A DNA stretch of 48,795 nucleotides, taken from an uncultured archaeon (GTDB taxonomy: Archaea; Aenigmatarchaeota; Aenigmatarchaeia; QMZP01). Position numbers and translations under genes: made by a program. The DNA is taken from the NCBI GenBank assembly GCA_964372825.1, contig CAYJTA010000001.1, positions 1-48,795 on the forward strand, written 5' to 3'. Positions within the stretch are counted from its first letter, which is position 1, and each line of letters starts with the position of its first letter. Shown here one piece after another: positions 5,341 to 37,012 of the stretch. Under the pieces are notes generated by a model. It saw nothing but the letters and a program-made list of their open reading frames with translations, had not been told where the DNA came from and searched no databases.

Positions 5341-5595
5341 ATGGAAACCAAAAAGAGGCTGGAAGCAGAAACCAGGAAATGGCTTGAAAGGCTTGAAAAC
5401 GATATGCAGCTTATCAAATCCAGTAAGCTGCCTAAGCCCACAGCCGAGCAGATGGACAATGTTTATGCTTATATCGAAGACTGCCGCTACTTTCTCGGAA
5501 AGAAGGATCACATCAATTCCTTCGAGGCCATAATCTATGCCTGGGGGATATATGAAACCCTGCTGAGGCTTGGGATGATAGAAAAAGAGAAGTGA
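5341..5595 (+). CDS. small archaeal protein, DUF357-like
   Basis: 84 aa. The pattern YAYIEDCRYFLGKKDHINSFEAIIYAWGIYETLLRLGMI resembles the DUF357 consensus (Y..D...F...gD...A....YA.G.lD...rlG). Recognised from memory only. Confidence 0.5.
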   Translation: METKKRLEAETRKWLERLENDMQLIKSSKLPKPTAEQMDNVYAYIEDCRYFLGKKDHINSFEAIIYAWGIYETLLRLGMIEKEK

Positions 5596-5862
5596 GCCCG
5601 GAGGGATTCTCGCCTTGATTTATCAGTTCAGTATTTGTATTGCCTTTCTTTGGATACCTTACCCTTTCTTTTGGAAAGAAAGGGTAGCTTCGAACCCTCG
5701 ACACCCTGGTGTCACCTGCAGCCATTCATCCTTCCGTCATATGGCTCCGCACTAAGAGCCAGGTGCTCTACCAGATTGCTCTACCCTCTTCCTTTGTAAC
5801 TTTTTCTTTTCCGTGCACGCTTTTCTTTTCCTAAAAGAAAAGGGTGCCTGAGCTACGGGCCC
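5593..5862 (-). tRNA. tRNA-Lys (anticodon CTT) with three introns: D-loop about 5778-5847, anticodon loop about 5710-5751, T-loop about 5607-5688
   Basis: Minus-strand exons join to GGGCCCG-TA-GCTCAG..TCTGGTAGAGC-A-CCTGG-CTCTTA(G/A)-CCAGG-GTGTC-GAGGG-TTCGAAT-CCCTC-CGGGCTC-A. Acceptor, anticodon and T stems all pair. TATA box about 30 nt upstream and a T-rich tract downstream. Confidence 0.85.
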
Positions 5863-5887
5863 ACTATACCAATTAAAATGTCTCATC

Positions 5888-5951: not shown

Positions 5952-7217
5952 GTGATCACTATGGCAGAGAAAACAAAAGCCAGGCAAAAGGCAAGGGAAG
6001 CCATTGACAGCAGGTTTTTGCCTGACATAAATGTAGGCATGATAGGCCATGTGGACCACGGCAAAACCACGCTTACAGCAGCCCTCACAGGCAAGTTCAC
6101 GGACACCCACAGCGAGGAGATCAAAAGGGGAATCACAATAAGGCTGGGCTATGCCGACGCTACCATCTACAGATGCCCCAAATGCCCGGACCGCATATAC
6201 GGGCTTGATCCAAAATGCCCCGTATGCCACTCTGAATGCGAGCCTGCGAGGACAGTGTCTTTTGTGGATGCCCCCGGGCATGAAACCCTCATGACAACAA
6301 TGCTCTCAGGGACAGCCATAATGGATGCAGCCATTCTTCTTGTGAGCGCTGCCGAGCCCTGCCCCCAGCCGCAGACAAGGGAGCATCTCAAAGCGCTTGA
6401 CATAGTGGGAATCAGGAACGTCATCATAGTCCAGAACAAGATCGATATTGTCACAAGGGAGCAGGCTCTCCAGAACTATGCCCAGATAAAGTCATTTGTC
6501 AAAGCCACCATCGCTGAAAATGCCCCCATCATACCCATCTCAGCGCAGCAGAAGATAAACATAGATTGCCTTGTGGGGATGCTTGCGGAAAGGCTGCCAA
6601 AATCCGAGAGGGATTCCAAAGGGAGGCTGAAGATGCTTGTTGCAAGGAGCTTCGATATCAACAGGCCCGGAACGCAGATAAAGGATCTCAGGGGCGGCGT
6701 CCTCGGGGGAAGCATACTTTCCGGGACTCTTCATGTGGGCGATGAAGTGGAGATAAGGCCCGGCATAAGCATCAAGAACAGGTACAGGCCTGTGTTCACA
6801 AAGGTTGCAGGCATCCAGAAGGCCGGCAGAAATATGGAAGAAGCCACTTCAGGCGGCCTTGTGGGCATTTCGACAACCCTAGACCCTTCCCTGACAAAGA
6901 GCGACAGCCTTGCGGGAAACATCCTCGGCCTGCCAGGCGAGATTCCGGAAACTGTTTATGACATCTCTATAGAAGCTCACCTTCTCGACAAGGTTGTCGG
7001 AACAAGGGAGGAGATGAGGGTCGAAGGCATAAAGCCGAACGAGACGCTTCTTCTTACAGTCGGCATATCAAGGACTATAGGGACTGTAGTCTCTGCCTCC
7101 CACGGGGTGGACATCAAGCTGAGGATGCCTGTATGCGCTGAAAAAGGCGACAGGATTGCCATATCAAGGCAGATACTCAGCAGATGGAGGCTCATAGGAT
7201 GGGGGGAGATAGTATGA
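5952..7217 (+). CDS. eif2g: translation initiation factor aIF-2 gamma subunit (GTPase)
   Basis: G1 motif GHVDHGKTTL, DAPGH, NKID, and the zinc knuckle CPKCPDRIYGLDPKCPVCHSEC typical of a/eIF2-gamma. The true start is probably the ATG at 5961 (MAEKTKA). Confidence 0.93.
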   Translation: MITMAEKTKARQKAREAIDSRFLPDINVGMIGHVDHGKTTLTAALTGKFTDTHSEEIKRGITIRLGYADATIYRCPKCPDRIYGLDPKCPVCHSECEPARTVSFVDAPGHETLMTTMLSGTAIMDAAILLVSAAEPCPQPQTREHLKALDIVGIRNVIIVQNKIDIVTREQALQNYAQIKSFVKATIAENAPIIPISAQQKINIDCLVGMLAERLPKSERDSKGRLKMLVARSFDINRPGTQIKDLRGGVLGGSILSGTLHVGDEVEIRPGISIKNRYRPVFTKVAGIQKAGRNMEEATSGGLVGISTTLDPSLTKSDSLAGNILGLPGEIPETVYDISIEAHLLDKVVGTREEMRVEGIKPNETLLLTVGISRTIGTVVSASHGVDIKLRMPVCAEKGDRIAISRQILSRWRLIGWGEIV

Positions 7218-9260: not shown

Positions 9261-9281
9261 CCTTCCAGCCATATTGTAACT

Positions 9282-9390
9282 GGGCGGCCAAAATGGGGAG
9301 GATCACCCGTTCCCGTTCCGAACACGGAAGTTAAGCTCCCCGATGGTCCAGGAAACCTGCCTAACGGCGGATAGCCTGGATAGCTGCCCA
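9282..9390 (+). rRNA. rrf: 5S rRNA (short, about 109 nt, not linked to 16S/23S within this window)
   Basis: Contains the conserved CCCGTTCCGAACACGGAAGTTAAGC block. Helix I is GGGCGGC/GCTGCCC, helix II-III is GGGGAG/CTCCCC, and helix IV-V is TCCAGG/CCTGGA. Confidence 0.85.
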
Positions 9391-9436
9391 CTTTCTATTT
9401 CCAAGTCCTATATCTTCATTTCGCGCCAAATGCAAC

Positions 9437-9479: not shown

Positions 9480-9699
9480 GCCCATGTGGTGTAGCGGTCC
9501 AGCATAGGAGCCTGTCAGCAGCCTTTCTTTTCACAAAAGAAACGCTGGCGATAGAAAACTTCGCGAAGAAGGGCCGGCAGTCCGCTCTTGACCCGGGTTC
9601 AAATCTACCCTTTCTTTCCGAAAGAAAGGGTAAGTTATCCAAAGAAAGGGAATACACATACTGAACTGGATAATTATGGTGAAAATCCCGGCGTGGGCG
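9480..9699 (+). tRNA. tRNA-Asp (anticodon GTC) with two introns: canonical 37/38 intron about 9518-9582 and T-loop intron about 9605-9686
   Basis: Exons are GCCCATG-TG-GTGTAGCGGTCCAGCAT-A-GGAGC-CTGTCA|C-GCTCT-TGAC-CCGGG-TTCAAAT|CCCGG-CGTGGGC-G. All four stems pair and the anticodon loop CTGTCAC is typical of tRNA-Asp. Confidence 0.85.
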
Positions 9700-9734
9700 C
9701 TTCCTACCGAATTAGTTGTGTATAGGCATAACTT

Positions 9735-11923: not shown

Positions 11924-12253
11924 TGAGCCCGGAGGGATTCTCGCAGCGCACATCGCTCTATCCAAAGAAAAGACAATACAAACGATGAGCTTGTTATTTA
12001 TTCTACATTTGTATTTCCTTTTCTTGGATACCCTACCCTTCTTTTTGGAAAAGAAGGGTGGTTTCGAACCCTCGACTCCCTGGTATCTTCCCCCATCTTT
12101 CTATCATTTGGCTAAAAGCCATCCATATGCTTTTAACGTGAGTTAAAAGCCAGGTGCTCTACCAGATTGCTCTACCCTCTTCCTTTGTAACTTTTTCTTT
12201 TCCGTGCACGCTTTTCTTTTCCTAAAAGAAAAGGGTGCCTGAGCTACGGGCCC
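11924..12253 (-). tRNA. tRNA-Lys (anticodon TTT) with three introns: D-loop about 12169-12238, anticodon loop about 12084-12142, T-loop about 11938-12062
   Basis: Exons are GGGCCCG-TA-GCTCAG..TCTGGTAGAGC-A-CCTGG-CTTTTAA-CCAGG-GAGTC-GAGGG-TTCGAAT-CCCTC-CGGGCTC-A. The 5' 106 nt (12148-12253) are identical to 5757-5862. Confidence 0.85.
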
Positions 12254-12280
12254 ACTGATATTCAAGATATTCTCTGTCTT

Positions 12281-14095: not shown

Positions 14096-14201
14096 TTAAA
14101 GTGAAACAACTAAAGAATCTGCATTTTCAGAAAGATATATAAAAAGTCCTGTTATCGTTTTTCCGTTAACGCTTTTTGATTTATTTCATGGAAAAGGGTT
14201 A
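14096..14201 (+). repeat. 106-bp direct repeat, copy B
   Basis: One mismatch to copy A (TATAAAAAGTCC versus TATAAACAGTCC). Here the 16 duplicated C-terminal codons are immediately preceded by an in-frame TAA, so this copy is a gene-end remnant. Confidence 0.9.
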
Positions 14202-17756: not shown

Positions 17757-19412
17757 ATGCCTGAAGATAGCCTTTTCTGGGCCGACCAGATGGCCGCTGC
17801 CGTGAAGGATAGGGTGGCCAGGGACCCTGTTCTCCAGAAGATTGTCAGGGAAAAAGGCTATATCTGTTATGATGAGAAAACACCTTCAGGAAAAATTCAT
17901 ATAGGCTCTGGAAGGGGCTGGATAATCCATGACACAGTGGCCAAGGCCATGCGCCATGCCGGAATGAAGGCAAAGTTCATCCTCAGCTCTGACGACATGG
18001 ACCCTATGGATGCAATACCTGTAGGCCTTGACAGGAGGAAATTCCTGCCTCTCATGGGCATGCCTATGAAGGATGTCCCCAGCCCTGCGGACGGATACGC
18101 CTCATTCGCAGAATACTATTTCATGGACTCTGCCGAAAAATTCCCTGATTTCGGGATAGAGGTGATTCTGGAGAGGACATCCCGCCACTACGGGAACGGG
18201 GATTTCAATCCTTACATCAGGCTCGCCCTGGACAGCCATGAGAAAATCCAGAAGATATACCAGCAGATGTATGGAAAAGGGATAGGAAAGCTGCCTTTCA
18301 ATCCCATATGCGAGAAGTGCGGCAAAATCGGGACTACTGTGGCCTATGAGTGGGACAGGGAAAGGGAAGTGATAAAATACAGGTGCTCCCCTGACCTTGT
18401 CGACTGGGCCAGGGGCTGCGGCCATCGGGGAGAGGCATCCCCATACAACGGGAACGGCAAGCTGCCGTGGAAAGTCGAGTGGGCCGCAAAGTGGCCGACG
18501 GTTGGCGTAGTCTTTGAGACCGCAGGCAAGGACCACTTCTCGAAAGGGGGCGCAAGGGAAGTGGCCATAAGGATATCCTCTGAGATTTTCAATTATCCTC
18601 CCCCATACCCTTCGAGCAGGACCGAGATAGGAAAGGGATACGAGTTCTTCACTGTCGGAGGGGCCAAGATGTCCACGTCAAAGGGGATAGGGGTTGGGTT
18701 CAGGGAAATCTCAGACATCCTCTCCCCAAAGATACTGAGATACCTTCTGGTAAGGACAAGGCCCCATGCTGTTATTGATTTCGATCCATATGGAACCAAT
18801 AAGCTCCTGCTACTCTATGACTGCTACGACAGGACCGAAAGGATATATTTCGGGGCAGAGAAGGTTGAAAACAAAAAGGAAGAGATGCAGGAAAAAAGGA
18901 TATATGAGCTTTCATATGTAGGGAAGATGCCAGCAGCCCTCCCGCCCCAGATACCTCTGGCATTCGCCTCAATGGTTGTCCAGACAACAAATTTCGACAT
19001 ACACAATGCTGTCCAGAAGATTTGGCAGATGAAAGGAATGGGAAAGCCCGGTAACAATGAGAAATCATATCTGGAAGAAAGGCTGAATGACGCTGCCAGC
19101 TGGGTGAGGAAATTTGCGCCCGAGCAGTACAGGTTTTCTTTGAGAGAAAGGGTAGAGAAGCTGCATCTGGAAGCCGGTTTAAGAAATGCGCTCGGAGACC
19201 TGTTCCATGTACTGAAGACATTCTCTGATGAAAAAGAACTGGAAGAAAACATCTACGAAATCATAAAAAAGAACAATGTCGAGGCCAGGGAATTCTTCAG
19301 GGCCTGCTACACGATTCTCATAGGGAAGGACCACGGGCCGAAGCTGGCCCAGTTCATGCTTTTTGCAGGGAAGGACAGGATTGTCAAGCTTCTACAGCAG
19401 GCTATTTCCTGA
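17757..19412 (+). CDS. lysK: lysyl-tRNA synthetase, class I
   Basis: 551 aa. Motifs FWADQMA, TPSGKIHIGSGRG (HIGH-type), SSDDMDPMD, and GAKMSTSKG (KMSKS-type). Overall layout matches archaeal class I LysRS. Confidence 0.85.
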   Translation: MPEDSLFWADQMAAAVKDRVARDPVLQKIVREKGYICYDEKTPSGKIHIGSGRGWIIHDTVAKAMRHAGMKAKFILSSDDMDPMDAIPVGLDRRKFLPLMGMPMKDVPSPADGYASFAEYYFMDSAEKFPDFGIEVILERTSRHYGNGDFNPYIRLALDSHEKIQKIYQQMYGKGIGKLPFNPICEKCGKIGTTVAYEWDREREVIKYRCSPDLVDWARGCGHRGEASPYNGNGKLPWKVEWAAKWPTVGVVFETAGKDHFSKGGAREVAIRISSEIFNYPPPYPSSRTEIGKGYEFFTVGGAKMSTSKGIGVGFREISDILSPKILRYLLVRTRPHAVIDFDPYGTNKLLLLYDCYDRTERIYFGAEKVENKKEEMQEKRIYELSYVGKMPAALPPQIPLAFASMVVQTTNFDIHNAVQKIWQMKGMGKPGNNEKSYLEERLNDAASWVRKFAPEQYRFSLRERVEKLHLEAGLRNALGDLFHVLKTFSDEKELEENIYEIIKKNNVEAREFFRACYTILIGKDHGPKLAQFMLFAGKDRIVKLLQQAIS

Positions 19413-20590: not shown

Positions 20591-21862
20591 CTATTGTTTT
20601 AACCCGTATTGCCCTTTGTTTCCAAGCATCTCCTCTATCCTCAGAAGCTGGTTGTATTTGGCCGTTCTCTCGCCTCTTGCCGGTGCGCCTGTCTTTATCT
20701 GGCCAGCATTCCAGCCCACGGCCAGATCAGCTATGAAGCTGTCCTCCGTCTCCCCGGAGCGGTGGCTTATGACCACATTCCAGCCTGCTTTTTTTGCCAT
20801 CCTGAAGGCCTCCACGGCTTCTGTTATGGTTCCTATCTGGTTGAGTTTGAGGAGCAAGGCATTTGCTGCCATCATATCTATTCCTCTCGAAAGCCTCTTT
20901 ACATTTGTGACAAAAATGTCATCCCCTACAATCTGTATCTTCCTTCCTATGGCCTCTGTAACCTTTCCAAACCCGTCAAAATCCTCCTCATGAAGAGGAT
21001 CCTCTATGGAAGCAATGGGATATTCCTCGCATAGCTTCTCATAAAAGGAGGCCATATCTTCCGGCACAATTTTCTTGCCGTCAATATGGTAAAGCCCCTC
21101 TTTGAAGAAGCTGCTTGCTGCCGCATCCAGTCCCAGACTGATTTCTTTTGGGCCGTAGCCTGCAATTTCAATGGCCTTCATTATTGCACCTAATGCCTGC
21201 CTTGTGTCAGACATTGGGGGCGCAAATCCTCCTTCATCACCCACATTTATCGCGCCTTTCCCGTGTTTTTCTTTGAGATATCCCTTGAGGCTGTGATAGA
21301 TTTCCGATCCGGCCTTCAGAGCCTCTGAAAAGTTTTTCATGCCGGAGGGCATTATCATGAACTCCTGTATCGCAAGGCCGTTTCCCGCATGCATGCCGCC
21401 GTTTATGATGTTTATCATGGGGACAGGCAGTATGATGGCCTTTCCTTTATTCATTTCAGCAAGATGCTGGAACAACTCACGTCCAAGGCCTGCTGCAGCG
21501 CATCTCGCATTCGCCATGGAAACGGCAAGGATCGCATTTGCGCCTAAATTGGATTTGTTTTGCGTCCCATCGGTTTCTATCATTTTTTTATCCACTTCTT
21601 ACTGCCTTCTGGAATCCGTTCCAATCAAGAGTTTCGAAATCCTTGAATTCACATTCATGACAGCATTCCTTACACCTTTCCCATGGAATTCCTTTGTCCC
21701 GTCTCTCATTTCCAAAGCCTCATGCGTGCCTGTGCTCGCTCCTGACGGGACCATCGCTCTTCCTGAGCCTTTCCCTGAATAGACTTCGGCCTCGACAGTA
21801 GGCGTGCTTCTGGAATCAAGCACCTGCCTTCCGTGGACCTTGGTTATCCCGAATCCTTCCAT
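20591..21862 (-). pseudogene. eno: enolase interrupted by a single in-frame TAA (track position 21599-21601); alternatively a split gene
   Basis: The N-terminal piece (21599..21862) has [14 protein letters not shown] and [13 protein letters not shown]. The C-terminal piece (20591..21595) has [27 protein letters not shown] and [10 protein letters not shown]. Both are in the same frame, reading ...SRRQ-TAA-E-V(GTG)DKKMIETDG. Confidence 0.88.
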
Positions 21863-24430: not shown

Positions 24431-25519
24431 ATGGATGTCCTGACCAGGCTGGAGCTTATCAGGAACGTGGGAGAGGAGATAATAACACTGGAAGAGTTAA
24501 GGCAGCTCCTCGAGACAAATCCTAAACCAGTGGCCTATGACGGCTTCGAGCCTTCAGGCCTCGCCCCCATCCACTTCGGCATTTACCGTGCAATAAACCT
24601 CAAAGACCTCCTGAAGGCAGGCATCCATTTCAAGCTTTTCCTTGCCGACTGGCACGCATGGGTGAACAACAAGATGGGCGGCGATCTGGAGAGGATAAGG
24701 AAGGTTGGCGAATACTTTGTTGAAGTGTGGATGGCTGCTGGAATAGATATGTCAAAGATTGAAATTGTATGGGCCAGCGATATTTGTTCTAAAAGAGAGT
24801 ATTGGAAAAAAATGATAATAATAGGCAAAAATACCACAATAAAAAGGGCTGCAAGAGCCTTAACTATTATGGGCCGGAAAGAAGGGGAATTGCAGGAGGT
24901 CGCCCAGTATCTGTATCCCCTGATGCAGGCCGCAGACATATTCGAACTGGATGTCGACATCTGCCAGCTCGGTTTGGACCAGAGGAGGGCCAATATCCTG
25001 GCAAGGGAAGTGGCCGAAAGGATGAAATGGAAGAAGCCAGTAGCTGTCCACCACCACATGCTCATGGGCCTGCAGGGAAAGAAGCAGGCCGAGGGCTTTG
25101 AGACAAACGCTGAAATGGACGCCGAGATAAGCAGCAAGATGTCTAAAAGCAAACCGGAATCATCCATATTTGTCCATGACACACTTGGTGCAATAAAGTC
25201 AAAAATAGCAAAGGCATACTGCTCCCCGAAGGAGGTGGACAACAACCCCATGCTTGAGTACTGCAGATATATCATATTCAGGCACTTCAGGGAAATGAGG
25301 ATAGAGAGGCCTTCCAAATTCGGGGGAGACGTCTCATTCAGCAATTATAAAGAACTGGAAGACACATTCAAGAAAGGAGAGCTGCACCCTGCTGATTTGA
25401 AAAATGCCGCCGCAATTCATCTGGATAAGATTATAAGCCCTATAAGGGATCATTTCGAGAAGAACAAAAAGGCAAAGGAATTGTACGATTTCGTGAGGAA
25501 GCAGGAAGTGACGAGATAG
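24431..25519 (+). CDS. tyrS: tyrosyl-tRNA synthetase, archaeal type
   Basis: Close collinearity with archaeal TyrRS as I recall it: AYDGFEPSG..IHFG, LADWHAW, YPLMQAADI, KMSKSKP, and KFGGDVSFSNYKELEDTFKKGELHPADLKNAAA. Confidence 0.88.
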   Translation: MDVLTRLELIRNVGEEIITLEELRQLLETNPKPVAYDGFEPSGLAPIHFGIYRAINLKDLLKAGIHFKLFLADWHAWVNNKMGGDLERIRKVGEYFVEVWMAAGIDMSKIEIVWASDICSKREYWKKMIIIGKNTTIKRAARALTIMGRKEGELQEVAQYLYPLMQAADIFELDVDICQLGLDQRRANILAREVAERMKWKKPVAVHHHMLMGLQGKKQAEGFETNAEMDAEISSKMSKSKPESSIFVHDTLGAIKSKIAKAYCSPKEVDNNPMLEYCRYIIFRHFREMRIERPSKFGGDVSFSNYKELEDTFKKGELHPADLKNAAAIHLDKIISPIRDHFEKNKKAKELYDFVRKQEVTR

Positions 25520-29755: not shown

Positions 29756-32700
29756 CTAGTCGGAAAAAGTCACAACGGAAACATAATCGCAGGGTCTGGC
29801 AGTCAGAGGCACATGGATCTTTATCTGCATCGCTTTTTCAGTGCCCTTTATCCCTTCTATCTGCAATGAGCCCTTTTCAGGGAAGAACCTGCAGCATTCG
29901 CTCTGCACCCCCACTTCCACATCAAGCCTCTCGTTTCCAGTATTCCTTACCTTCCCGCTGATGAATGCATCCATCCCCTGCCTGATTTCGAAGGACAACT
30001 GATAGAGCAGAAGCTCAAAGGCCGCGATTTTTTCTGCCTCCCTCTGTATCTTCCTGCACGCACGCAGCATGATGTCGCATTCCAGGCCGCCTTCGCAGTC
30101 CCTGTCGCTTGCACATGCCTCGCCTTCCCTGCTCAGGTTCTTGGCTGCCCCTATTGCGCTGCTTGATGTCCCGCCGCCTACTGAAGCGCCAGAGGAGCCT
30201 GAAGAGGATGACTGCTGGGTTGTCGGCACCACAAAATCTGTCCCTGAATTCTTGAAAGAATCAGTGCCTGATGCAAAGATGCTGAATGACCCGCTGGCAT
30301 CAGCTGCCGATAACGATTGGTTATTTGAGTATATTCCGTCGCTCTCTTTGCTGAGAAGAGCAAACTGGTTATTGCACTTGTTGGTCTGGCACTGGACAAT
30401 CACAGAGGCGTCAGCTACAGGCTCTGATCTTATGTTCAGCACCCTCACCCTCATATTTATCTGCTGGCCTGAGCTTACAAATTCGTTTGCTATCGGGCTT
30501 ATTATCTGGGTTGTAAGGGATTTGTAGACCCCGAATGCCGCTGTTGCGACCCCCCTGTTTCCGCTCCTGCTGGCATTGGCATAGACCACATACGTCGCAC
30601 TGCTGCCTGAATCGGCATCGGGCTTGTCAGTTGCCTCTATCCTGTAGTATGCCGAACCCTGAACAGAGCCGTTGGCCACAGTGGCATTTGCCGCAGACCT
30701 GTCGAGGATGATGCTGAGGTTGAAGCCTGTCACATTCTCATTGTTGGCATTTCTGACGATCACATTGATGCTGACATTCTCGCCCTTGTTGTACGAGCTG
30801 TATGGAGTTGACACGTTTACAGTGTACACATCTGTCACATTGAAGCTGCCTGCGGATGATGAGTTTATGTTTCCCGACATGTCGGAAGCAAAAACAATGA
30901 ACGAGAAATTGCCGGTCTCATTCGCATTTGTGAAATCAAGAGAATAGAGACTGTTCCTTATCTGCGAGGCGGAATGGTTTTGCCTCCCTCCCGAAGGGTG
31001 CGTCACCTGCACCGTGACAGAATTTATTATCGAATTGTCCGTCACATTGGCGGATATGGTATTGGTTTCGTACAGGTTAAGGGTGCTGTAGGCCTTGGAG
31101 ACGGAGTTTATCTGCGGCCTCTGGCTGTCGCTGGCTATGACAATCACGAGCATGCTACTGTTTGCGGGCTGGTGGTAGGTGGAGTTGACAGTGAAGTTGA
31201 CATACGCCTGGCCTGCAGCCGTGCCGTTTACTGTGAAGCTTACCTTCCTCGGTTTTGTGCCTTCAAACGTCACATTGCCGATGTTCCTGAAGTTTTCCGT
31301 AAGATTAATCACGCCTGATGATGAAGAATATGCCGATACATTTATCAGATCCCCATTGCTCGGGGTAAGGAGCATGCTTATGTTGGCAGGCTGGCCAAGA
31401 GGTATGGATACCTGGCTGCCATTGCCGTCAGCAGGCTCTATGCTTATGTTTCCTAGCGGCACAGAAAAGGTTAAGTTTTTCGTGACAGTGATCCTCATTA
31501 TGGCTGTAACAGAGACTGTGTAATTTCCTGACCTTGTGACGTTCCTGTATGCTCCTGAGTACTGCAGACTGCTGCCTGAAACACGTGAGAGAGATACAAT
31601 CTCAGTAACATTCCCCGGCTTCATAATCAGCGCCCTCACGCTCTGCACGGAGCTAGCATTCCCGCTTATGTTGGCCTGTATTGCAAGGGTATTGTTCACG
31701 GGCAGGCTTGAATTGGAAAGGGATACATTGAACTGGAGCTCCTTTACCTCCAGCTGCATGGTCGTATTCAGCGATCCGATGTTTCCCTGGCTGTCGTTCG
31801 CATATTCTGCAAGTATCGTGTAGTTCCTGCTGTCCTGGGTCTGGTTTAACACAAGCTCCCATGTCCCTGATTGGAGGCTGCCGGTGAGTAAGGAGAGGCT
31901 CATGTTGGTGAGGTTGCCATAGCTGTCGTTCACCATCACCCATGCGGCTGTCACATTGGCATTGTCTGTAGCAGCAAGAGTGACTGAAGATGACTCATTG
32001 ACATTGACAATATTCAGCGAGATGTCAGCCGAGGATATCTCAGGCCTCTCGGCGTCAAGGGCAGTCACGATCACGCTATTGCTGGCATTGAACATGCCTG
32101 AGAGGCCATCTATGGCCGTTGCAGTGAAGTTGAAGATGCCAGCTGCCGGCAGGGATATGTTCCAGCTTGCTGTCCTGCTGCTATTGGATGGTATGCTTTC
32201 AATGATCGTATAGTTGTTTCCTGCATCCGAAGAGAATGATGCATTGACATAGTATGCCTTTCCGCTTCTCCCCTCTTTGGCATCATTAGTGACAGTGACG
32301 CTGAAGTTGAAGTAACCGCTCTGGTTGAATACGCATGCTCCAAGGCCATTGCAGAGCATCGAGGTTATGTTAAGGAGAGGGGAGATGGTTGTGGTATAAT
32401 CAGAAATGTTTGTCTCTCCCGCGCCTATTGTCCATGAAGAGTTTGTATCCTGAACTTTTGCCGATGCGCTGGTGTTTGCTGTTATATTGATTGAGGAGAC
32501 AGCAGTCAGAGGGGTTGCAGTTATCAGGTTTCCTGCATAAATCATGGAGCATGCTGAGCCGCATTCATACCGGCTTATATTGGAATAGGAATCAGGCAGG
32601 AAGAGGTTAAAACTTTTATTGGCCATGCTCCTGTTGAAATTGATGGATAGCAGGATGGAGCCGTTTGTGGCCGAATCTATTGTTTTTGATCCGTTTATTG

Positions 32701-35700
32701 TCGCCGACAGCGTCGAATTGACAACAAGGAAGCTCCTGTTTAGCTGGGTCTCATTGAGGCCCGCTGCATTCCCCATGCTGTCATTCGCGAACAGCATCGT
32801 GATTGTGTGCCTTCCTGTCGCATTTGTATTCGCAAATGCCAGGGAAAAGTTTGCTTCTCCTGAATAAGGAGACATGCTGAAGTTCCTCCTCATGCCGGAA
32901 TAGTTCAGTTCCACGATGGCGTGGCTGATGCCGCCTGCGTCTGACAAATTGGCCATTATCCTGATGCTCTCGAAGGGATGCACCCTGGCATCGCTGAAAA
33001 TCGCATCTGTCACATTGAATGATATGTTGCCTGATGTCGGAGGGGCGTTGTCAAGGGTATAAGCCGCATACGTCGAAATTGTATTTCCTGCGGAATCAGT
33101 TGCATATAATGTGACATTTCTTTGCCCATTGCCTGAAAAGGCCGGACTGAAACCGATCCCGCTCGGGAAGCTTGTGTTTGTCCCGTTTCCGTTGTCGAAA
33201 CGAAGGGAAGCCATGCCTGAGGCAGAGTCGGAAACTGCCACAGTAAGCTGTGTGGAGGATGTTATCCTGCTGCCGTTTGCCGGGCTCGTGGAAATGAATG
33301 ATGGCTTAGTGAGGTCAACAGAAAAATTCCTGCCTGCTGAGGCTGTCAGTCCGACAGAGTCATTGGCCTGCACTGTCACCTCGCACTTTCCCATGCCCTC
33401 TGTCTGGCAGTAGGAGATATTTGCGAGGAAAGGCTGGCCGCATGGAATTGTTATCCACCCTGATTCTGAGCTTCCTGCAATTCTGGACATGCAGGATAAA
33501 TTGCTGGTATCTGCAGCGGAGAAGGTCACATTAAAACTGTTTGACTGCCAGCTGTTGGCGGCAGGAGATGCGATTGATACAGAAGGCTGTGTGTTGTCAG
33601 TGCTCAGGTATATACTGCTTGTATTGCTGTTTCCAGCTTCATCTGTTGCTGAAACCTCTATCATGCAGTTCGAAGCATTGTTGTCGGAGCAGAGCTGGGT
33701 GCTGAAGCTGATGTTGGACGCGCAGCTCGTGTTGAATGGGCCATTCGTTCCTGACTGGGCGAAGCTCCAGCTGCAGGAGCCCAGCCTGACGGCATCTGAG
33801 GCAGAGAAGCTCACATTTATCGCGCGTGTCTGTAGGCTAGCATTGGAAGGGGATGTTATGGAAACAGATGGCTTCTGCCTGTCTATGTATGCCCAGCTCC
33901 TGTCTGTCGCCGATGCTGTCGTGTTGTCTATTGAAGTGAAATTGACAGAATAGTTTCCATCCGCAAGGCTCTGGATGTTTATTGTATTTGTAAATGAACA
34001 TGTAGTTGAGCTGATGCCCGCTACCGAATAATTGGCTATCAATGTCGAATTGTAAATATAGTAGCTGCACTCCGTCAGTATCCTGCCTATTACTGCGGAG
34101 CCTCTCATGTCGAGGCTGAAATTGCCGCCTAATATCTTTTCTCTGGGAAAGACTATCGCAGCAGTGGGCTTCTGATTGTCGACTGAAAATGTAGCGTTCC
34201 TGCTTGCCGCATTGCTCGCATTGTCAGAGGAGTTTACCACAAGGACAAATGTTGCGACAGTATACGGATTGCTGTCGAACGTCGAGTTCCAGTTAGGATA
34301 TGTGAGGTTGCCGCTGGAAATCGTCTGGCTCATGTTGCTTGCGTTGAGGATGCTGTATGTCGCATTGGTTGCTCCTGCCCCCAAGTCGGTTATGTTGGCC
34401 CTTATCTCGATTGCGCCTGACCTGCTGCTCCCATCGGGAGGGTTGAGAATCGTTATTGAAGGCGCCTTCCTGTCTATCCTTATCAGGCTGCTGTTTTTAG
34501 TGCTCTCCAGATTGCCCACGCTGTCATTGCTCCTGTACCGGACATATATCTGGCACTCCTCACCCTGGCCGCATGCTGCTGTTGCCACTGCTCCTGCCGT
34601 TGCCGGCATGCACTCAGGCTGGGTTGTCCTGTAAGTGCAATATAATGTGACACTGCATGCAGTCACGTTGTCTGTGCAGTTCAGCCTTACAGCCTGGTCG
34701 CTTGTTTTCCAGTCAGGGGATGTATAATTGTCTGAAGTGTTTGGCGGCGTCACATCCAGCGTGTAAAAAAGGAGGGTATTGTTCGCATTTCCTGCGCTGT
34801 CATTCGCATATACTGTGAGGTTCCTGAGGCCTTCCCCTGTGAACCCCGGGCTGAATGAGATATTGTTTGTTATGCTGAAATTCGTGCCGTTGCCGTTATT
34901 GGCAAGAGCATTAGCGCCCGAAACGGCATCAGAAAAGGATATGGTGGCTGTTGTACTGCCTGTTATGTTGGAGTTGTTTGCAGGGGAGAATGAAGAGAAA
35001 GAGGGCGCTGTATTGTCAGCAATAAAGGCAAAAAGCGTCGTGTTTGTATTTCCTGCGGAATCATTCGCATACGCCCTCAGAGTCCTGCTGCCTTCGGCCG
35101 TATAGCCAGGATTGAAAGAGACATTGTCTGCAAAGCTCGTATTTGTTCCATTGCCGTTATCAAACCAGCTGGCGGCTATGCCTGAAAATGATTCTATTAA
35201 ATCTATCCTTATGTTCCTTGCAAAGTTTATATAGGAGCCGTTGGCAGGATCCATCAGATTGAATGCAGGGGCCGTGTTGTCGACGGCAAACGAATAAAGG
35301 GTCCAGTTCTGGTTGCCCGAATTGTCCATGAAGCTTGCATTCAGCGTCTTGTTCCCTTCGCTCGCATAACCTGGATTGAATGCCGCGCCGCTGGAAAAGC
35401 CTGTTTTTGTCCCATTGCCGTTGTCGAATGTGTGGCCTGAGCTTGCAACGCCTGAAAGGCTGTCGTTCAGCGCTATAGTGAGGTTTGCCGAAGAGGTTAT
35501 GAATGAGTTGTTGGCCCTCGATATCGATACTATATAGGGAGGCTGGCGGTCGATGGTAATCGTATCACTCAGTGTGGTTGTCTGCACATTCCCTGCTGTA
35601 TCTTTCACCTGCACATAAATTGTTTTCAGGCCATCGGAATTCGTGCAGCCATAACTTGAATTTGTGAAATTGAAATCAGAATATGTTGTAGTCCATGCTA

Positions 35701-37012
35701 CCCAGTTTGCCCAGTTTGAGTTGTCGCATGAGAAGCGCATGTAATCAGGGTTGCCATCCGATGCGTTCTGGTCAGCTATATAGAGTGCAGGCTTCTCTTT
35801 GTTCGTATATGTTGGCCCGGGGTCAGAATCGCTTTCTATGGTTATTCTTGAAGCAGTAGGAGCTGTCCTGTCCACGCTAACCGTCACATTGTCGAACTTC
35901 CCCCAGAAGCCGTCAAAGTCCTTGCAGTGCACGGCTATTGTATGGTTCCCCTCTGAAAGGCCTGCAGTATTTATAGTTATATTTGCAATCTCTGTGGCGC
36001 TGCTGAATGACCCGTCTTTTGCCCCAAGGGCTGTTCCTGAGCCGAAAGAGCCTGTTGTGTCCACAAAATACTCCGCTGCCGTTATGTTCGAATACCTCTG
36101 GGTTGTGTTGCATGTGACGTTAAGCACAGTCGTGCTGTTTGTCAGATTTGGCGTCAGCCTTGCCCCCTTAGAATCTGGAGACACGAGGTAACCTAGAACC
36201 TGCTTCATCAGGCTTCGTCGCGTGGAGTTTCCGCTGCTCCTTTCAAAGGCAAAGCCGAAGAGTAAGGTTTTGTATGATGCCGTCTTTGCTCTTATGGCGG
36301 CATATCCGCCCTCAAAGGCGTCGCTACAGATCCAGTAATATAGGCCAGAAATTAAATAAAGGCTGCAGTATTTGAATACATTGGCTGAAAGCGAATCCTT
36401 TCCGTCTATAATGTCCGGATTGTCAGCACCGGCGTTAAGGATGTTTATCGTGAAGTCATCGCCTATGGGGTCTTTTTTTGTTGTGTCGGCATCCCTCACG
36501 TAATCATCATAAAAGGCATCATCTGCTATGTATTCAGCATGGAGGTAGCTCTCAAAGAAGCTGTCCACATGGCCTATGTCAGACGCTATGTCCTGGCCTG
36601 TGAGGAACAGCTTCCCGCCATTGTCCAGGTACCACTGGAGGTTCTGCCTGTCTGCTGCTGTCAGGGTCGGATAGTTGAAATCCCCGCCTACCGCTCCTGT
36701 ATCGAAGGCCGTAAACCAAATAACTATGTCATAGTCCCTCATCAGGCTGGTGCAGCTTGCCGTTGTCGTATTGTATCCCGGGCCGTCGCCTGTCTGAGAC
36801 GAAACCACGCACTTGTCGAAAGAATAGCCGTTCCCCTGTATGGCCCATGCATAATATTTCTCAAGCTGGGAGTTTGTGCATTCCACCCCTCCCGGACAGA
36901 AATGGGCATCCTCGACAAGAAGTATTTTCGCCTTGGGGGAGTCAGAGTATACTATATTCGATAGAAGGGCAAAGGCAAAGGCCAAAATAAGGAGAAATCT
37001 GAATAAGCGCAT
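29756..37012 (-). CDS. giant secreted surface protein/adhesin candidate (2418 aa) with a Sec signal peptide, many Ig-like repeat modules and very dense N-glycosylation sequons; no C-terminal anchor
   Basis: Uninterrupted 7.26-kb ORF. Signal peptide is MRLFRFLLILAFAFALLSNIVYS. Repeated modules of the type TAPxF..SPANxSxIT....I..SDxxSG......NGNGTN.S......F.PG...EG.R.L..YA.DSAGN. The motif GLKTIYVQVKDTAGN is typical of Ig-like surface repeats. By eye I counted about 35 N-x-S/T sites in the first 760 aa. Confidence 0.9.
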   Translation of the reverse strand: MRLFRFLLILAFAFALLSNIVYSDSPKAKILLVEDAHFCPGGVECTNSQLEKYYAWAIQGNGYSFDKCVVSSQTGDGPGYNTTTASCTSLMRDYDIVIWFTAFDTGAVGGDFNYPTLTAADRQNLQWYLDNGGKLFLTGQDIASDIGHVDSFFESYLHAEYIADDAFYDDYVRDADTTKKDPIGDDFTINILNAGADNPDIIDGKDSLSANVFKYCSLYLISGLYYWICSDAFEGGYAAIRAKTASYKTLLFGFAFERSSGNSTRRSLMKQVLGYLVSPDSKGARLTPNLTNSTTVLNVTCNTTQRYSNITAAEYFVDTTGSFGSGTALGAKDGSFSSATEIANITINTAGLSEGNHTIAVHCKDFDGFWGKFDNVTVSVDRTAPTASRITIESDSDPGPTYTNKEKPALYIADQNASDGNPDYMRFSCDNSNWANWVAWTTTYSDFNFTNSSYGCTNSDGLKTIYVQVKDTAGNVQTTTLSDTITIDRQPPYIVSISRANNSFITSSANLTIALNDSLSGVASSGHTFDNGNGTKTGFSSGAAFNPGYASEGNKTLNASFMDNSGNQNWTLYSFAVDNTAPAFNLMDPANGSYINFARNIRIDLIESFSGIAASWFDNGNGTNTSFADNVSFNPGYTAEGSRTLRAYANDSAGNTNTTLFAFIADNTAPSFSSFSPANNSNITGSTTATISFSDAVSGANALANNGNGTNFSITNNISFSPGFTGEGLRNLTVYANDSAGNANNTLLFYTLDVTPPNTSDNYTSPDWKTSDQAVRLNCTDNVTACSVTLYCTYRTTQPECMPATAGAVATAACGQGEECQIYVRYRSNDSVGNLESTKNSSLIRIDRKAPSITILNPPDGSSRSGAIEIRANITDLGAGATNATYSILNASNMSQTISSGNLTYPNWNSTFDSNPYTVATFVLVVNSSDNASNAASRNATFSVDNQKPTAAIVFPREKILGGNFSLDMRGSAVIGRILTECSYYIYNSTLIANYSVAGISSTTCSFTNTINIQSLADGNYSVNFTSIDNTTASATDRSWAYIDRQKPSVSITSPSNASLQTRAINVSFSASDAVRLGSCSWSFAQSGTNGPFNTSCASNISFSTQLCSDNNASNCMIEVSATDEAGNSNTSSIYLSTDNTQPSVSIASPAANSWQSNSFNVTFSAADTSNLSCMSRIAGSSESGWITIPCGQPFLANISYCQTEGMGKCEVTVQANDSVGLTASAGRNFSVDLTKPSFISTSPANGSRITSSTQLTVAVSDSASGMASLRFDNGNGTNTSFPSGIGFSPAFSGNGQRNVTLYATDSAGNTISTYAAYTLDNAPPTSGNISFNVTDAIFSDARVHPFESIRIMANLSDAGGISHAIVELNYSGMRRNFSMSPYSGEANFSLAFANTNATGRHTITMLFANDSMGNAAGLNETQLNRSFLVVNSTLSATINGSKTIDSATNGSILLSINFNRSMANKSFNLFLPDSYSNISRYECGSACSMIYAGNLITATPLTAVSSINITANTSASAKVQDTNSSWTIGAGETNISDYTTTISPLLNITSMLCNGLGACVFNQSGYFNFSVTVTNDAKEGRSGKAYYVNASFSSDAGNNYTIIESIPSNSSRTASWNISLPAAGIFNFTATAIDGLSGMFNASNSVIVTALDAERPEISSADISLNIVNVNESSSVTLAATDNANVTAAWVMVNDSYGNLTNMSLSLLTGSLQSGTWELVLNQTQDSRNYTILAEYANDSQGNIGSLNTTMQLEVKELQFNVSLSNSSLPVNNTLAIQANISGNASSVQSVRALIMKPGNVTEIVSLSRVSGSSLQYSGAYRNVTRSGNYTVSVTAIMRITVTKNLTFSVPLGNISIEPADGNGSQVSIPLGQPANISMLLTPSNGDLINVSAYSSSSGVINLTENFRNIGNVTFEGTKPRKVSFTVNGTAAGQAYVNFTVNSTYHQPANSSMLVIVIASDSQRPQINSVSKAYSTLNLYETNTISANVTDNSIINSVTVQVTHPSGGRQNHSASQIRNSLYSLDFTNANETGNFSFIVFASDMSGNINSSSAGSFNVTDVYTVNVSTPYSSYNKGENVSINVIVRNANNENVTGFNLSIILDRSAANATVANGSVQGSAYYRIEATDKPDADSGSSATYVVYANASRSGNRGVATAAFGVYKSLTTQIISPIANEFVSSGQQINMRVRVLNIRSEPVADASVIVQCQTNKCNNQFALLSKESDGIYSNNQSLSAADASGSFSIFASGTDSFKNSGTDFVVPTTQQSSSSGSSGASVGGGTSSSAIGAAKNLSREGEACASDRDCEGGLECDIMLRACRKIQREAEKIAAFELLLYQLSFEIRQGMDAFISGKVRNTGNERLDVEVGVQSECCRFFPEKGSLQIEGIKGTEKAMQIKIHVPLTARPCDYVSVVTFSD
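34742..35551 (-). repeat. three tandem modules of about 90 aa inside the giant protein (aa about 488-757); a fourth related copy lies further downstream
   Basis: The three modules QPPYIVSISRANNSFITSSANLTIALNDSLSGV...DNGNGTKT...NPGYASEGNKTL...DNSGN, TAPAFNLMDPANGSYIN...DNGNGTNTSF...NPGYTAEGSRTLRAYANDSAGN and TAPSFSSFSPANNSNITG...NNGNGTNFS...SPGFTGEGLRNLTVYANDSAGN align. The later copy is KPSFISTSPANGSRITS...DNGNGTNTSF...YATDSAGN. Confidence 0.8.

Follow-up and report, generated by a model that had tools for sequence, protein, structure and literature searches.

A family of putative BHB introns at one T-loop position of tRNA-Asp and tRNA-Lys genes carries a pyrimidine/purine hairpin and a mirror-image purine tract

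Introduction

Transposition of tRNA introns has been reported in the Thermoproteales (Fujishima et al. 2010, Mol Biol Evol 27:2233, as cited in PMC4033280 and PMC4090602). As described in these two reviews, the Thermoproteales introns resemble those presented here in that one gene may hold up to three of them, they are gained and lost between close genomes and the mechanism of their spread is unknown. A 2014 review states the same of the mechanism of intron transposition in general (PMC4090602). The hosts differ, being Crenarchaeota there and DPANN (Aenigmatarchaeota and others) here, and the summary accounts in PMC4033280 and PMC4090602 mention no conserved sequence or structure module. In contrast, one module here spans several phyla, rRNA introns and sites outside introns.

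An intron at the corresponding position is known from the ARMAN-2 (Micrarchaeota) pre-tRNA-Cys; it lies between nucleotides 59 and 60, has an hBH motif and was cut experimentally, in vitro, by epsilon2 EndA, a DPANN enzyme (PMC3239211). It shares with the introns described below the T-loop site, a relaxed bulge-helix-bulge (BHB) on the T-stem and a DPANN host, but its length is 13 nt and it lacks the module. Since both Thermoproteales transposition and the ARMAN-2 59/60 site had already been reported, the phenomenon at our locus as the initial annotation framed it, a spread of homologous introns among different tRNAs, is of a known kind. The marks of transposing introns, namely similar introns in tRNAs of different identity and occupancy that differs between close genomes, were both found here. 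Our analysis concerns a window of 48,795 nucleotides, the whole stretch of Aenigmatarchaeota DNA that was analysed, and loci related to it.

Results

Three tRNA genes of the window were rebuilt by hand and then tested with ARAGORN. We found that removal of the inserts yields the canonical tRNAs Asp(GTC), Lys(CTT) and Lys(TTT) (Table 1). ARAGORN, run with and without intron options, called no tRNA in the unspliced window, and Rfam at both gathering and E <= 1 thresholds returned no tRNA there, its sole match being a 5S rRNA. A candidate fourth T-arm at 38627 was examined and is not a tRNA. The intron coordinates and sequences of the initial annotation were borne out; it had placed the Asp T-loop intron at 9605-9686, which gives the same spliced product as 9604-9685 because a T follows both junctions. 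It had also described a perfect hairpin of about 11 bp in each T-loop intron, and we found 12 bp in the Asp and Lys(CTT) introns and 11 bp in that of Lys(TTT).

Table 1. Positions of the three tRNA genes in the window, with their putative introns and module parts.
Feature	Position	Strand	Description	Basis
tRNA-Asp(GTC) gene	9480..9699	+	exons 9480-9517, 9583-9603, 9686-9699	ARAGORN tRNA-Asp(gtc) after deleting two inserts
tRNA-Asp T-loop intron	9604..9685	+	82 nt, between nucleotides 59 and 60	splice test, fold
tRNA-Asp T-loop intron, pyrimidine/purine hairpin	9606..9632	+	12 bp, TACCCTTTCTTT / AAAGAAAGGGTA	
tRNA-Asp T-loop intron, second purine tract (R2)	9641..9649	+	AAAGAAAGG	
tRNA-Asp anticodon-loop intron (37/38)	9518..9582	+	65 nt, with module copy	
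tRNA-Asp anticodon-loop intron, module	hairpin 9524-9542; R2-like tract 9551-9558	+	R2-like tract ATAGAAAA	
tRNA-Lys(CTT) gene	5593..5862	-	three introns	ARAGORN tRNA-Lys(ctt) once spliced
tRNA-Lys(CTT) T-loop intron (59/60)	5607..5688	-	82 nt; hairpin 5660-5686, R2 5643-5651	
tRNA-Lys(CTT) canonical anticodon-loop intron	5711..5752	-	42 nt, without module	
tRNA-Lys(CTT) D-loop intron, after nucleotide 15	5776..5847	-	72 nt; module 5800-5845	
tRNA-Lys(TTT) gene	11924..12253	-	three introns	ARAGORN tRNA-Lys(ttt) once spliced
tRNA-Lys(TTT) T-loop intron (59/60), long form	11938..12062	-	125 nt; hairpin 12034-12060, R2 12017-12025	
tRNA-Lys(TTT) canonical anticodon-loop intron	12085..12143	-	59 nt, without module	
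tRNA-Lys(TTT) D-loop intron	12167..12238	-	identical to the tRNA-Lys(CTT) D-loop intron; module 12191-12236	

The minimum-energy folds of all three T-loop junctions show a bulge-helix-bulge, with a 4-bp helix on the T-stem and 3-nt bulges AA|N and AA|T. In the Asp precursor T54-A57 (TTCA) pairs with TGAA at 9680-9683 and the bulges are AA|T and AA|T, while in the Lys precursors T54-G57 (TTCG) pairs with CGAG at the 3' end of the intron. The inner helix h' of the T-loop introns is not canonical in these folds, which makes the motif a relaxed hBH. Of 138 T-arm sites selected by a search pattern that itself demanded this pairing, 71 show the geometry as well. At the D-loop, the tRNA-Lys(CTT) intron's 3' end, GAGC, resembles the D-stem and pairs with GCTC. 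From this anatomy we propose that T54-N57 of the precursor would pair with the last four intron nucleotides as in the folds, that EndA would cut in both bulges and that RNA ligase would then join the exons. Neither an EndA domain, for which the 30 window ORFs were scanned, nor a ligase was found in the window.

Two syntenic relatives served for comparison, L001 (81%) and L002 (neighbouring aIF2-gamma gene 96% identical). The exons of the three genes are 71/73, 74/74 and 74/74 identical to those of L001, and the introns are 72-88% identical or restructured. Neither ARAGORN nor Rfam detected a further gene for tRNA-Asp or tRNA-Lys in the window, and the cell therefore probably requires these copies. 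From exon conservation, this probable necessity and the junction geometry we infer that the inserts are archaeal BHB introns of the relaxed hBH type and are excised. Other intron classes were considered. Introns of groups I and II gave no Rfam match at E up to 1, and 82-125 nt is too short for either. For a C/D box sRNA intron there was no Rfam snoRNA match, and inspection by eye found only the D-box sequence CUGA, with no C box (RUGAUGA) conserved among the three T-loop introns.

We then compared the inserts with each other. Global alignment of the Asp and Lys(CTT) T-loop introns gave 72/81 identical positions (89%) and a score of 118, compared to 14 +/- 4.6 (maximum 32) for shuffled sequences, which places the real score about 22 standard deviations above the shuffles. 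The 35-nt intron tail, which is free of T/C and A/G runs, is identical at 29/35 positions with a score of 38 (shuffles 10 +/- 3.3, maximum 24 in 1000). The tail speaks against a resemblance confined to low-complexity runs, one of the outcomes that the initial annotation had named beforehand as fatal to its reading. A repeat search paired 5589-5697 with 9595-9703 (109 nt, 83% complementary), 5620-5713 with 11994-12087 (81%), and 5753-5865 with 12144-12256, the 5' halves of the two Lys genes including the D-loop intron (99% over 113 nt). In the 48.8 kb the T-loop module pattern matches only the three T-loop introns, where 0.01 sites are expected, and perfect pyrimidine/purine hairpins with 7 bp or more were found six times, in each case inside a tRNA intron. 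The exons of Asp and Lys are less alike than their introns, with 48/59 identical positions in the aligned stretches (81%, semi-global alignment; equal to 66% of 73 nt) versus 89%, and the exon match around the intron comes to about 7 + 4 nt. The alignment of three T-loop introns at one site, as first described, is thus far above chance in the shuffle tests. This supports the view that the three inserts belong to one intron family at one tRNA position, in host genes that are not homologous beyond the generic tRNA fold.

Related hairpins had also been noted in the D-loop and Asp anticodon introns, and a covariance-model search had been suggested. A model trained on the T-loop introns only matched the D-loop intron of tRNA-Lys(CTT) with 38.9 bits (E = 2.6e-7) and the Asp anticodon intron at 9519-9561 with 21.5 bits (E = 0.003), in agreement with that observation. 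It recovered 6/6 modules of the window and gave no other full-length match with E < 0.1.

The module opens with a pyrimidine/purine hairpin of 9-13 bp, whose start lies 2-8 nt past the 5' splice site. Next comes an accessible purine tract, R2, which in the Asp T-loop intron is single-stranded in the minimum-energy fold. R2 of the long Lys(TTT) intron is paired with a pyrimidine tract located downstream, near 11952-11974. We found that R2 is the mirror image of the purine arm of the hairpin and not a copy of it, with 123 mirror versus 2 direct cases, counts that overstate the number of independent events because the sequences are related by descent. The ratio was 45:1 among archaeal genome loci, a subset biased by a selection pattern that included R2, 78:1 among metagenome loci, which are free of this bias, and 17:1 among bacterial loci. 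In a subset selected with R2 unconstrained it was 25:0. The rule holds across more than 20 run-length classes; scoring was by comparison of run lengths, as scoring of full stem strings is confounded by flanking C/G runs. This mirror relation was overlooked in the initial annotation.

A check for compensatory changes in the hairpin had also been suggested. The lower stem has 13 paired extension types by direct count, and all but one are fully Watson-Crick. A C.C mismatch is conserved at the base of the upper stem, and a G stands at the aligned R2 position in 16/17. The core is almost free of mismatches, and a strand-selection test on G.U versus C.A wobbles came upon a single instance of either type among 127 hairpins. 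In introns with a second hairpin, this is placed close to the 3' end in inverted orientation in 6/8 cases. Among 52 T-loop introns, 6 carry an inverted second module at the 3' end, as does the Lys(TTT) intron of L001, and about 44/52 have one hairpin only. In two-module introns about 10-14 nt separate the end of the second hairpin from the 3' splice site. A single module in most introns is unlike what is expected of a two-ended cut-and-paste transposon.

Comparison of the syntenic relatives revealed recent exchange, gain and loss, which supports the spread of introns between non-homologous tRNAs that had been claimed from the window. The orthologous Lys(CTT) gene of L002 carries a T-loop intron of the Lys(TTT) type, 95% identical to the Lys(TTT) intron of the window and 77% identical to its Lys(CTT) intron. 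At the D-loop, the intron measures 72 nt in the window, is about 105 nt and different in L002, and is missing from both Lys genes of L001, where the site is cleanly empty. Despite this swap, gain and loss, exons remain 97-100% identical among the close relatives. The comparison shows that the three introns form a single sequence family, copied from one tRNA gene to another in recent times. For the two Lys isoacceptors gene conversion would be the most likely route, because the flanking exons are identical. For Asp and Lys a transposition-like or microhomology event seems more likely because of the short exon match, and after such a transfer the last ~14 nt of the intron would adapt to the new exon.

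Beyond the window, the covariance model gave 79 matches in 52 archaeal loci. The matches of the genome scan came from MAGs whose record titles, from which we took the phylum labels, read Aenigmatarchaeota, Micrarchaeota, Pacearchaeota, Altiarchaeota and Iainarchaeum. A metagenome scan with R2 unconstrained yielded 52 distinct candidate 59/60 introns, after removal of which ARAGORN calls more than 12 isotypes, calls that are unreliable where other introns remain. One 16S gene is 185 nt longer than its model and has two modules inside. The module is thus found in introns of the D-loop, the anticodon loop and the T-loop, in insertions of 16S rRNA and at some sites that are not introns. Outside introns it occurs in both orientations in mRNA leaders, directly past tRNA 3' ends and upstream of tRNA, with copies upstream of AhpC and S3Ae genes. 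R2 lies 7 nt before the AhpC start codon in L078, and in L053 and L064 it is the purine arm of the hairpin, not R2, that takes the corresponding place before the S3Ae start codon. Elements of the same architecture, with the mirror bias given above, were found in bacteria; these look-alike repeats match no Rfam family, and two inverted copies enclose DUF4062 and TRADD-N-like genes and no transposase. A scan of viral contigs gave 13 matches, all of which look like terminators or chance matches, with no link to DPANN viruses. The initial annotation therefore under-estimated the scope of the module, which marks a family that reaches several DPANN phyla and includes copies in rRNA genes as well as copies that lie outside introns.

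Discussion

Our data are probably best explained by a family of relaxed hBH introns that has been copied between tRNA genes and whose 5' module may be the end of a mobile element and a candidate triplex. We propose that the module would serve a small, non-autonomous mobile element as its cis-acting end, and that stable-RNA genes may tolerate this element because EndA removes it. The initial annotation had offered a shared functional RNA element as an alternative to intron spread; the two are compatible. No transposase or other trans-acting partner was found. Nor was a clean target-site duplication: the D-loop empty and filled sites compare without one, and all that L078 and L028 show is a long duplication in the flanks (44 nt and about 27 nt).

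Mirror symmetry is a sequence signature of an intramolecular triple helix and suggests that the module, as single-stranded nucleic acid, would fold into one. Mirror repeats are known from H-DNA, and RNA triple helices from ENE/MALAT1 and telomerase pseudoknots, in which two U-rich strands clamp an A-rich one. The triplex code predicts a mirror repeat, and isolated C among T is the optimal composition for a pyrimidine-motif triplex. Formed on the sense strand, it would be a purine-motif triplex, a type that to our knowledge is well established for DNA and not for RNA; the favourable U.A-U and C+.G-C triples would require the antisense strand or one of the long forms. That the hairpin and its mirror purine tract form a true triple-helix element, in ssDNA or RNA, and act as the cis determinant of insertion or persistence across DPANN is a tentative proposal. 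If it were true, this would be the first sequence-defined "mobility module" of BHB introns, and the multicopy bacterial repeats of the same architecture would point to an undescribed general class of triplex-based mobile or regulatory elements.

The module could instead be a splicing or folding device, in which the very stable hairpin and the purine tract replace the missing h' of the relaxed BHB, offer a handle to the DPANN-type EndA with its L3 insertion or guard against mispairing of the intron with the exons, so that its conservation would reflect co-evolution with the enzyme. We consider this possible but on the unlikely side. The spacing of the hairpin to the 5' splice site, that of the second hairpin to the 3' splice site in two-module introns, and the absence of a canonical h' from the minimum-energy folds fit such a role, as does the L3 loop common to DPANN EndAs, which is associated with more disrupted tRNA genes (PMC5829648). 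It sits poorly with the modules outside introns in both orientations, with the same architecture in bacteria, which lack EndA, and with the canonical anticodon introns of the same Lys genes, which do without a module; a folding insulator also has no need of mirror symmetry. Somewhat less probable still is that nothing transposed and that old introns were homogenised by gene conversion, a concerted evolution acting through common T-arm and D-arm sequences. The two Lys genes would suit it well, with identical acceptor, D and T arms, near-identical 5' halves that include the D-loop intron, and a Lys(TTT)-type intron in the Lys(CTT) gene of L002. However, Asp and Lys have only GGGTTC and TCCC in common around introns that are more alike than the exons, members of the family are present, too, at D-loop, anticodon-loop and rRNA sites without common flanks, and the D-loop site of L001 is cleanly empty.

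We think it very unlikely that the introns are kept as a functional small RNA, such as a guide RNA, a Shine-Dalgarno-like decoy or a stable circular RNA, with the module as its core. R2 does resemble a ribosome-binding site, it or the purine arm stands before the AhpC and S3Ae start codons, and in other archaea BHB introns are turned into circles after excision (PMC12558985). Against this, Rfam gave no family even at E up to 1, no C box was seen by eye, the region past R2 varies widely in sequence and in length (42-300 nt), and no target was identified. Least probable by far is that the genes are pseudogenes with unremoved inserts, or the similarity a low-complexity coincidence, even though hairpin and R2 are T/C and A/G runs and standard tRNA finders pass over the genes. 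The non-repetitive tails are 83% identical, exons are kept while introns diverge, the spliced products are canonical tRNAs, and the window's lack of other detected Asp or Lys genes makes these copies likely needed.

Returning to mobile relaxed hBH introns as the favoured reading, a conserved and structurally unusual module at intron ends is a first sequence clue to, and a concrete experimental handle on, the gain and movement of BHB introns. The mirror rule itself yields a clean prediction that can be put to the test, namely that a natural nucleic acid forms a long base-triple structure. "Missing tRNAs" have been noted in DPANN genomes (PMC5829648). Since none of the three genes of the window is picked up by ARAGORN or by the Rfam tRNA model, some of these may be module-bearing multi-intron genes, and the module covariance model finds such overlooked genes easily.

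Several other known systems share features with the module. Like the known triplex systems, it combines a homopurine/homopyrimidine duplex with a third tract that fits the triplex code by polarity and sequence; it differs in that its triplex is a candidate predicted from sequence and that the third strand on the sense strand is purine-rich, for which there is no established RNA type. Like MITEs and palindrome-associated elements (e.g. IS200/IS605 derivatives), it is short, non-coding and multicopy with hairpin-forming ends, some copies have two inverted end modules, and copies lie in intergenic leaders and in genes. In contrast to these, most copies here are single-module, neither a transposase partner nor a consistent target-site duplication was found, and insertion into essential RNA genes would be rescued by RNA splicing. 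The euryarchaeal tRNA-Trp intron with its C/D box sRNA is likewise a tRNA intron carrying a conserved functional RNA element, but the introns described here have no C/D boxes or Rfam match, and lie at another position in other host tRNAs. What is new here is a module common to tRNA, 16S rRNA and non-intron sites across DPANN phyla, and its mirror-image purine tract.

Three tRNA genes carry T-loop introns of one family

No tRNA was found in the unspliced window by ARAGORN, even with its intron options, or by the Rfam tRNA model at E <= 1, and the sole RNA match was a 5S rRNA gene. When insert boundaries were set by hand and ARAGORN was run on the spliced sequences, tRNA-Asp(GTC), tRNA-Lys(CTT) and tRNA-Lys(TTT) were called, each canonical once its inserts are excised. 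The initial annotation had placed and read the three T-loop inserts correctly; its 9605-9686 for tRNA-Asp and our 9604-9685 are interchangeable, since both junctions are followed by a T. In annotations of MAGs with such multi-intron genes, tRNAs will go under-counted.

Features of the window discussed in the text
Feature	Position	Strand	Remarks
tRNA-Lys(CTT) gene	5593-5862	-	D-loop, anticodon-loop and T-loop introns; ARAGORN call after excision
5S rRNA gene	9280-9392	+	88 nt 5' of tRNA-Asp, same strand
tRNA-Asp(GTC) gene	9480-9699	+	two introns; ARAGORN call after inserts cut out
tRNA-Asp anticodon-loop intron	9518-9582	+	
tRNA-Asp T-loop intron	9604-9685	+	
Duplicated intergenic segment	10025-10130 and 14096-14201		106 nt, 99% identity
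tRNA-Lys(TTT) gene	11924-12253	-	D-loop, anticodon-loop and T-loop introns; ARAGORN call after excision
Class I lysyl-tRNA synthetase gene	17757-19412	+	6-12 kb from both tRNA-Lys genes
Enolase gene	about 20591-21857	-	in-frame TAA at 21599-21601
Trp/Tyr-type synthetase gene	24431-25519	+	
2418-aa ORF	29756-37012	-	internal repeats; 127-nt family at 33069, 34773, 35034

The order of 5S rRNA and tRNA-Asp genes is kept in L001 and L002, two syntenic relatives of the window, with a spacer of ~220 nt in L001. The nearness of the synthetase genes to the tRNA-Lys genes is probably a coincidental clustering of translation genes. The TAA in the enolase gene breaks an otherwise complete frame and could be a sequencing error, the mark of a pseudogene or recoding. 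The duplicated segment holds a TATA-like box, GAAAGATATATAAA.

A repeat search of the window paired 5589-5697 with 9595-9703 (109 nt, 83% complementary) and 5620-5713 with 11994-12087 (81%). A degenerate hairpin pattern matched the three inserts only in 48.8 kb, where 0.01 matches were expected. In global alignment the Asp and Lys(CTT) inserts shared 72 of 81 positions and scored 118, against 14 +/- 4.6 for shuffled sequences. Their 35-nt tails, which are free of T/C or A/G runs, were identical at 29 positions and scored 38, where 1000 shuffles gave 10 +/- 3.3 and never more than 24. Low complexity, which would have undone the earlier proposal of shared ancestry, therefore does not account for the similarity, and the three inserts form one intron family.

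The window has six perfect pyrimidine/purine hairpins of 7 bp or longer, and every one lies in a tRNA intron. A covariance model built from 42 T-loop modules (the 5' hairpin of the intron plus a second purine tract) recovered the three T-loop introns, as a model so built should. Three further introns were matched full-length: the two D-loop introns, at 38.9 bits (E = 2.6e-7), and the intron in the Asp anticodon loop, at 21.5 bits (E = 0.003). No further full-length match with E below 0.1 was found in the window. The model, which the initial annotation had suggested building, thus recovers all six hairpin introns and confirms the relatedness suspected for the D-loop and Asp anticodon hairpins.

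Predicted splice junctions are of a relaxed type

When T-arm plus intron is folded to minimum energy, T54-N57 pairs with a four-nucleotide stretch at the intron 3' end; the predicted 4-bp helix stacks on the T-stem, with the bulges AA|N and AA|T on its two sides, a geometry that would put the splice sites at 59/60. Asp pairs TTCA with TGAA and Lys pairs TTCG with CGAG; each intron 3' end thus matches its own host exon. Since the canonical inner helix is missing, the junctions would be of the relaxed hBH type of the bulge-helix-bulge (BHB) motif. By eye, the D-loop intron follows the same scheme: its 3' end GAGC AA|T mimics the D-stem 3' strand and pairs with GCTC. As modelled, the junctions of the window are BHB-compatible. 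An ARMAN-2 pre-tRNA-Cys with a 59/60 hBH intron is cleaved in vitro by its own tRNA splicing endonuclease, EndA (PMC3239211), and we infer that the inserts of the window are spliced by EndA.

Exons are conserved while introns are exchanged, gained and lost

We compared the window with L001 (aIF2-gamma 81% identical) and L002 (96%). By its aIF2-gamma, encoded next to the tRNA genes, the window belongs to Aenigmatarchaeota (DPANN): a protein of a MAG named Candidatus Aenigmatarchaeota is 81% identical to the window aIF2-gamma, and a GCA_053536595.1 protein 96%. Exon identity between the window and L001 was 71/73, 74/74 and 74/74, whereas introns were 72-88% identical or rebuilt. The L001 Asp T-loop intron is 242 nt long and carries the module twice. 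In the window the D-loop intron is 72 nt long, and its copies in the two Lys genes are 99% identical; both L001 Lys genes lack it, and in L002 it is about 105 nt with a different sequence. The L002 Lys(CTT) T-loop intron is 95% identical to the window Lys(TTT) intron but only 77% identical to the window Lys(CTT) intron, which in turn is 89-90% identical to Asp introns. Hence introns were exchanged among genes after these close relatives split. The comparison shows conserved exons and recently exchanged, gained and lost introns, which bears out the intron spread first proposed from the window. Gene conversion would be the simplest route between the Lys isoacceptors because their flanks are identical. 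The Asp and Lys flanks match only in GGGTTC and TCCC, and since these are so short an Asp-Lys transfer is more likely a transposition-like or microhomology event.

The module recurs in other genomes

Hairpin plus second purine tract was found at no fewer than 119 loci in species-representative genomes, about half of those listed being archaeal MAGs labelled in their records as Aenigmatarchaeota, Micrarchaeota (including Norongarragalinales), Pacearchaeota, Altiarchaeota and Iainarchaeum. At an E-value of 1e-3 or less the covariance model gave 79 matches in 52 archaeal loci among the matches listed. Judged mostly by eye from the flanks, the module lies directly 3' of D-loop, anticodon-loop or T-loop exon sequence in many tRNAs; in the MAG of L001, no fewer than five tRNA genes carry it (L001, L020, L085). 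In metagenomes, a search anchored on the T-arm that left the second tract unconstrained yielded at least 52 distinct candidates for 59/60 introns, 42-296 nt long. With these excised, ARAGORN called Asp, Lys, Phe, Ala, Ser, Leu, Trp, Arg, Val, Asn, Glu, Gly and others, some calls being unreliable where introns remain.

A Pacearchaeota 16S rRNA gene (L046, 6058-7720, minus strand) is 1663 nt long, 185 nt longer than the 1478-nt Rfam model, and has two module-bearing insertions, near 6900 and 7087; the spacer tRNA-Ala (about 5800) has a T-loop intron with the module.

Copies also occur outside introns. Upstream of an AhpC/TSA gene (L078, contig CAYYYJ010000031.1, minus strand, about 5550-5790) are two tandem 98-nt units, each made of the gene's first 44 nt and a 54-nt module whose purine tract AAAGGAG lies 7 nt before the ATG, like a ribosome-binding site. 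In the S3Ae gene leaders of two related archaeal genomes (L053, around 3988; L064, minus strand, around 1843) the module is inverted, the hairpin purine arm overlaps the Shine-Dalgarno position, and between the orthologues a change from T3 to T4 is coupled with one from A3 to A4. Modules right after the discriminator base of otherwise intact tRNAs (L004, minus strand, 3821 and 6126; L005, minus strand, 4370) or on both sides of one (L072, around 1500-1700) could be trailers, processing signals or remnants. The module is common to several intron positions, RNA classes and phyla and to some non-intron sites.

Bacterial multicopy repeats open with the same architecture of hairpin, 1-2 nt linker and mirror purine tract. 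We found them in L092 (1319-1495 and, inverted, 2425-2630), in one Lentisphaeria MAG (L010, L022, L024, L037, L060, L079, L080, L103, L111, L118), in Desulfomonilia / 'delta proteobacterium' (L032, L036, L061, L084, L102) and in Flavonifractor (L070, L075, L095, L109). No Rfam family was found for them. The loop is often complementary to bases just 3' of the tract, giving pseudoknot potential, and in L084 DUF4062 and TRADD-N-like genes lie between two inverted copies.

The second tract mirrors the hairpin

The hairpin is 9-13 bp long, with a loop of some 3 nt and a core of C-T3-C-T3-4 with its complement, and starts 2-8 nt past the 5' splice site. Its lower stem has 13 paired extension types, including CC/GG, GC/GC, GGC/GCC, GAC/GTC, AGCC/GGCT and TACCC/GGGTA, fully Watson-Crick in all but one. 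Changes in the hairpin are therefore compensatory, a point that the initial annotation had proposed to check. In a subclass a further 3-4 bp of lower stem follow a conserved C.C (21 hairpins) or C.T (12 hairpins) mismatch.

The second tract, placed 8-17 nt 3' of the A/G core of the hairpin, is the mirror image of the purine arm (the parallel complement of the pyrimidine arm), not a copy: T3CT4 goes with A3GA4, T2CT5 with A2GA5 and T2CT3CT4 with A2GA3GA4. We tallied all hairpins with asymmetric run patterns among the matches listed. Mirror exceeded direct by 45 to 1 in the window together with the archaeal genome loci, the latter picked with a pattern that included the second tract, by 78 to 1 in metagenome loci and by 17 to 1 in bacterial loci; these sequences share descent, so the counts overstate independent events. 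The T-loop set with the second tract unconstrained gave 25 mirror, 0 direct and 5 ties among the matches listed. The tally covers more than 20 run-length classes in both polarities, and the tract position aligned with the C.C mismatch is G in 16/17. The tract stays accessible: it either directly follows the lower stem or, by eye, forms the loop of a short C-run/G-run hairpin. Longer introns have a downstream pyrimidine tract that pairs with it. Where there is a second hairpin, the 3' splice site follows 10-14 nt later and the hairpin is inverted in 6/8 cases; the intron then carries inverted modules at its two ends.

Interpretation and comparison with known introns

Both the mirror rule and the compensatory hairpin changes are evident in the sequences. 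To our knowledge mirror repeats are not produced by any copying mechanism, so the mirror rule must be selected. The sole structural code that would fit it is base-triple formation. On the sense strand a purine motif would form, with the second tract antiparallel to the purine arm (A.A-U and G.G-C); the complementary strand, and long forms on the sense strand, would form a pyrimidine motif (U.A-U and C+.G-C). The composition seen here, isolated C among T, is the one best suited to the pyrimidine motif. The element may act as RNA or single-stranded DNA, for mobility or splicing.

The main rival is that the module is a splicing handle, which would fit the fixed distance between module and splice site and the DPANN-specific L3 loop of EndA (PMC5829648), but would leave the non-intron copies and the bacterial look-alikes unexplained. 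We infer the module to be the end of a small non-autonomous mobile element.

Full-text literature searches turned up no archaeal intron described as having a conserved pyrimidine/purine module or the potential to form a triplex. In ARMAN-2, 59/60 introns and multi-intron tRNAs are already known (PMC3239211), and the T-loop introns of the window share the 59/60 hBH site. In Thermoproteales, similar introns in different tRNAs, multi-intron genes and rapid gain have been described as "intron transposition", with the mechanism stated to be unknown (PMC4033280, PMC4090602); the window likewise has similar introns in different tRNAs and several per gene. Intron spread among tRNAs is therefore already known in kind, and the new element is the mirror-repeat module.
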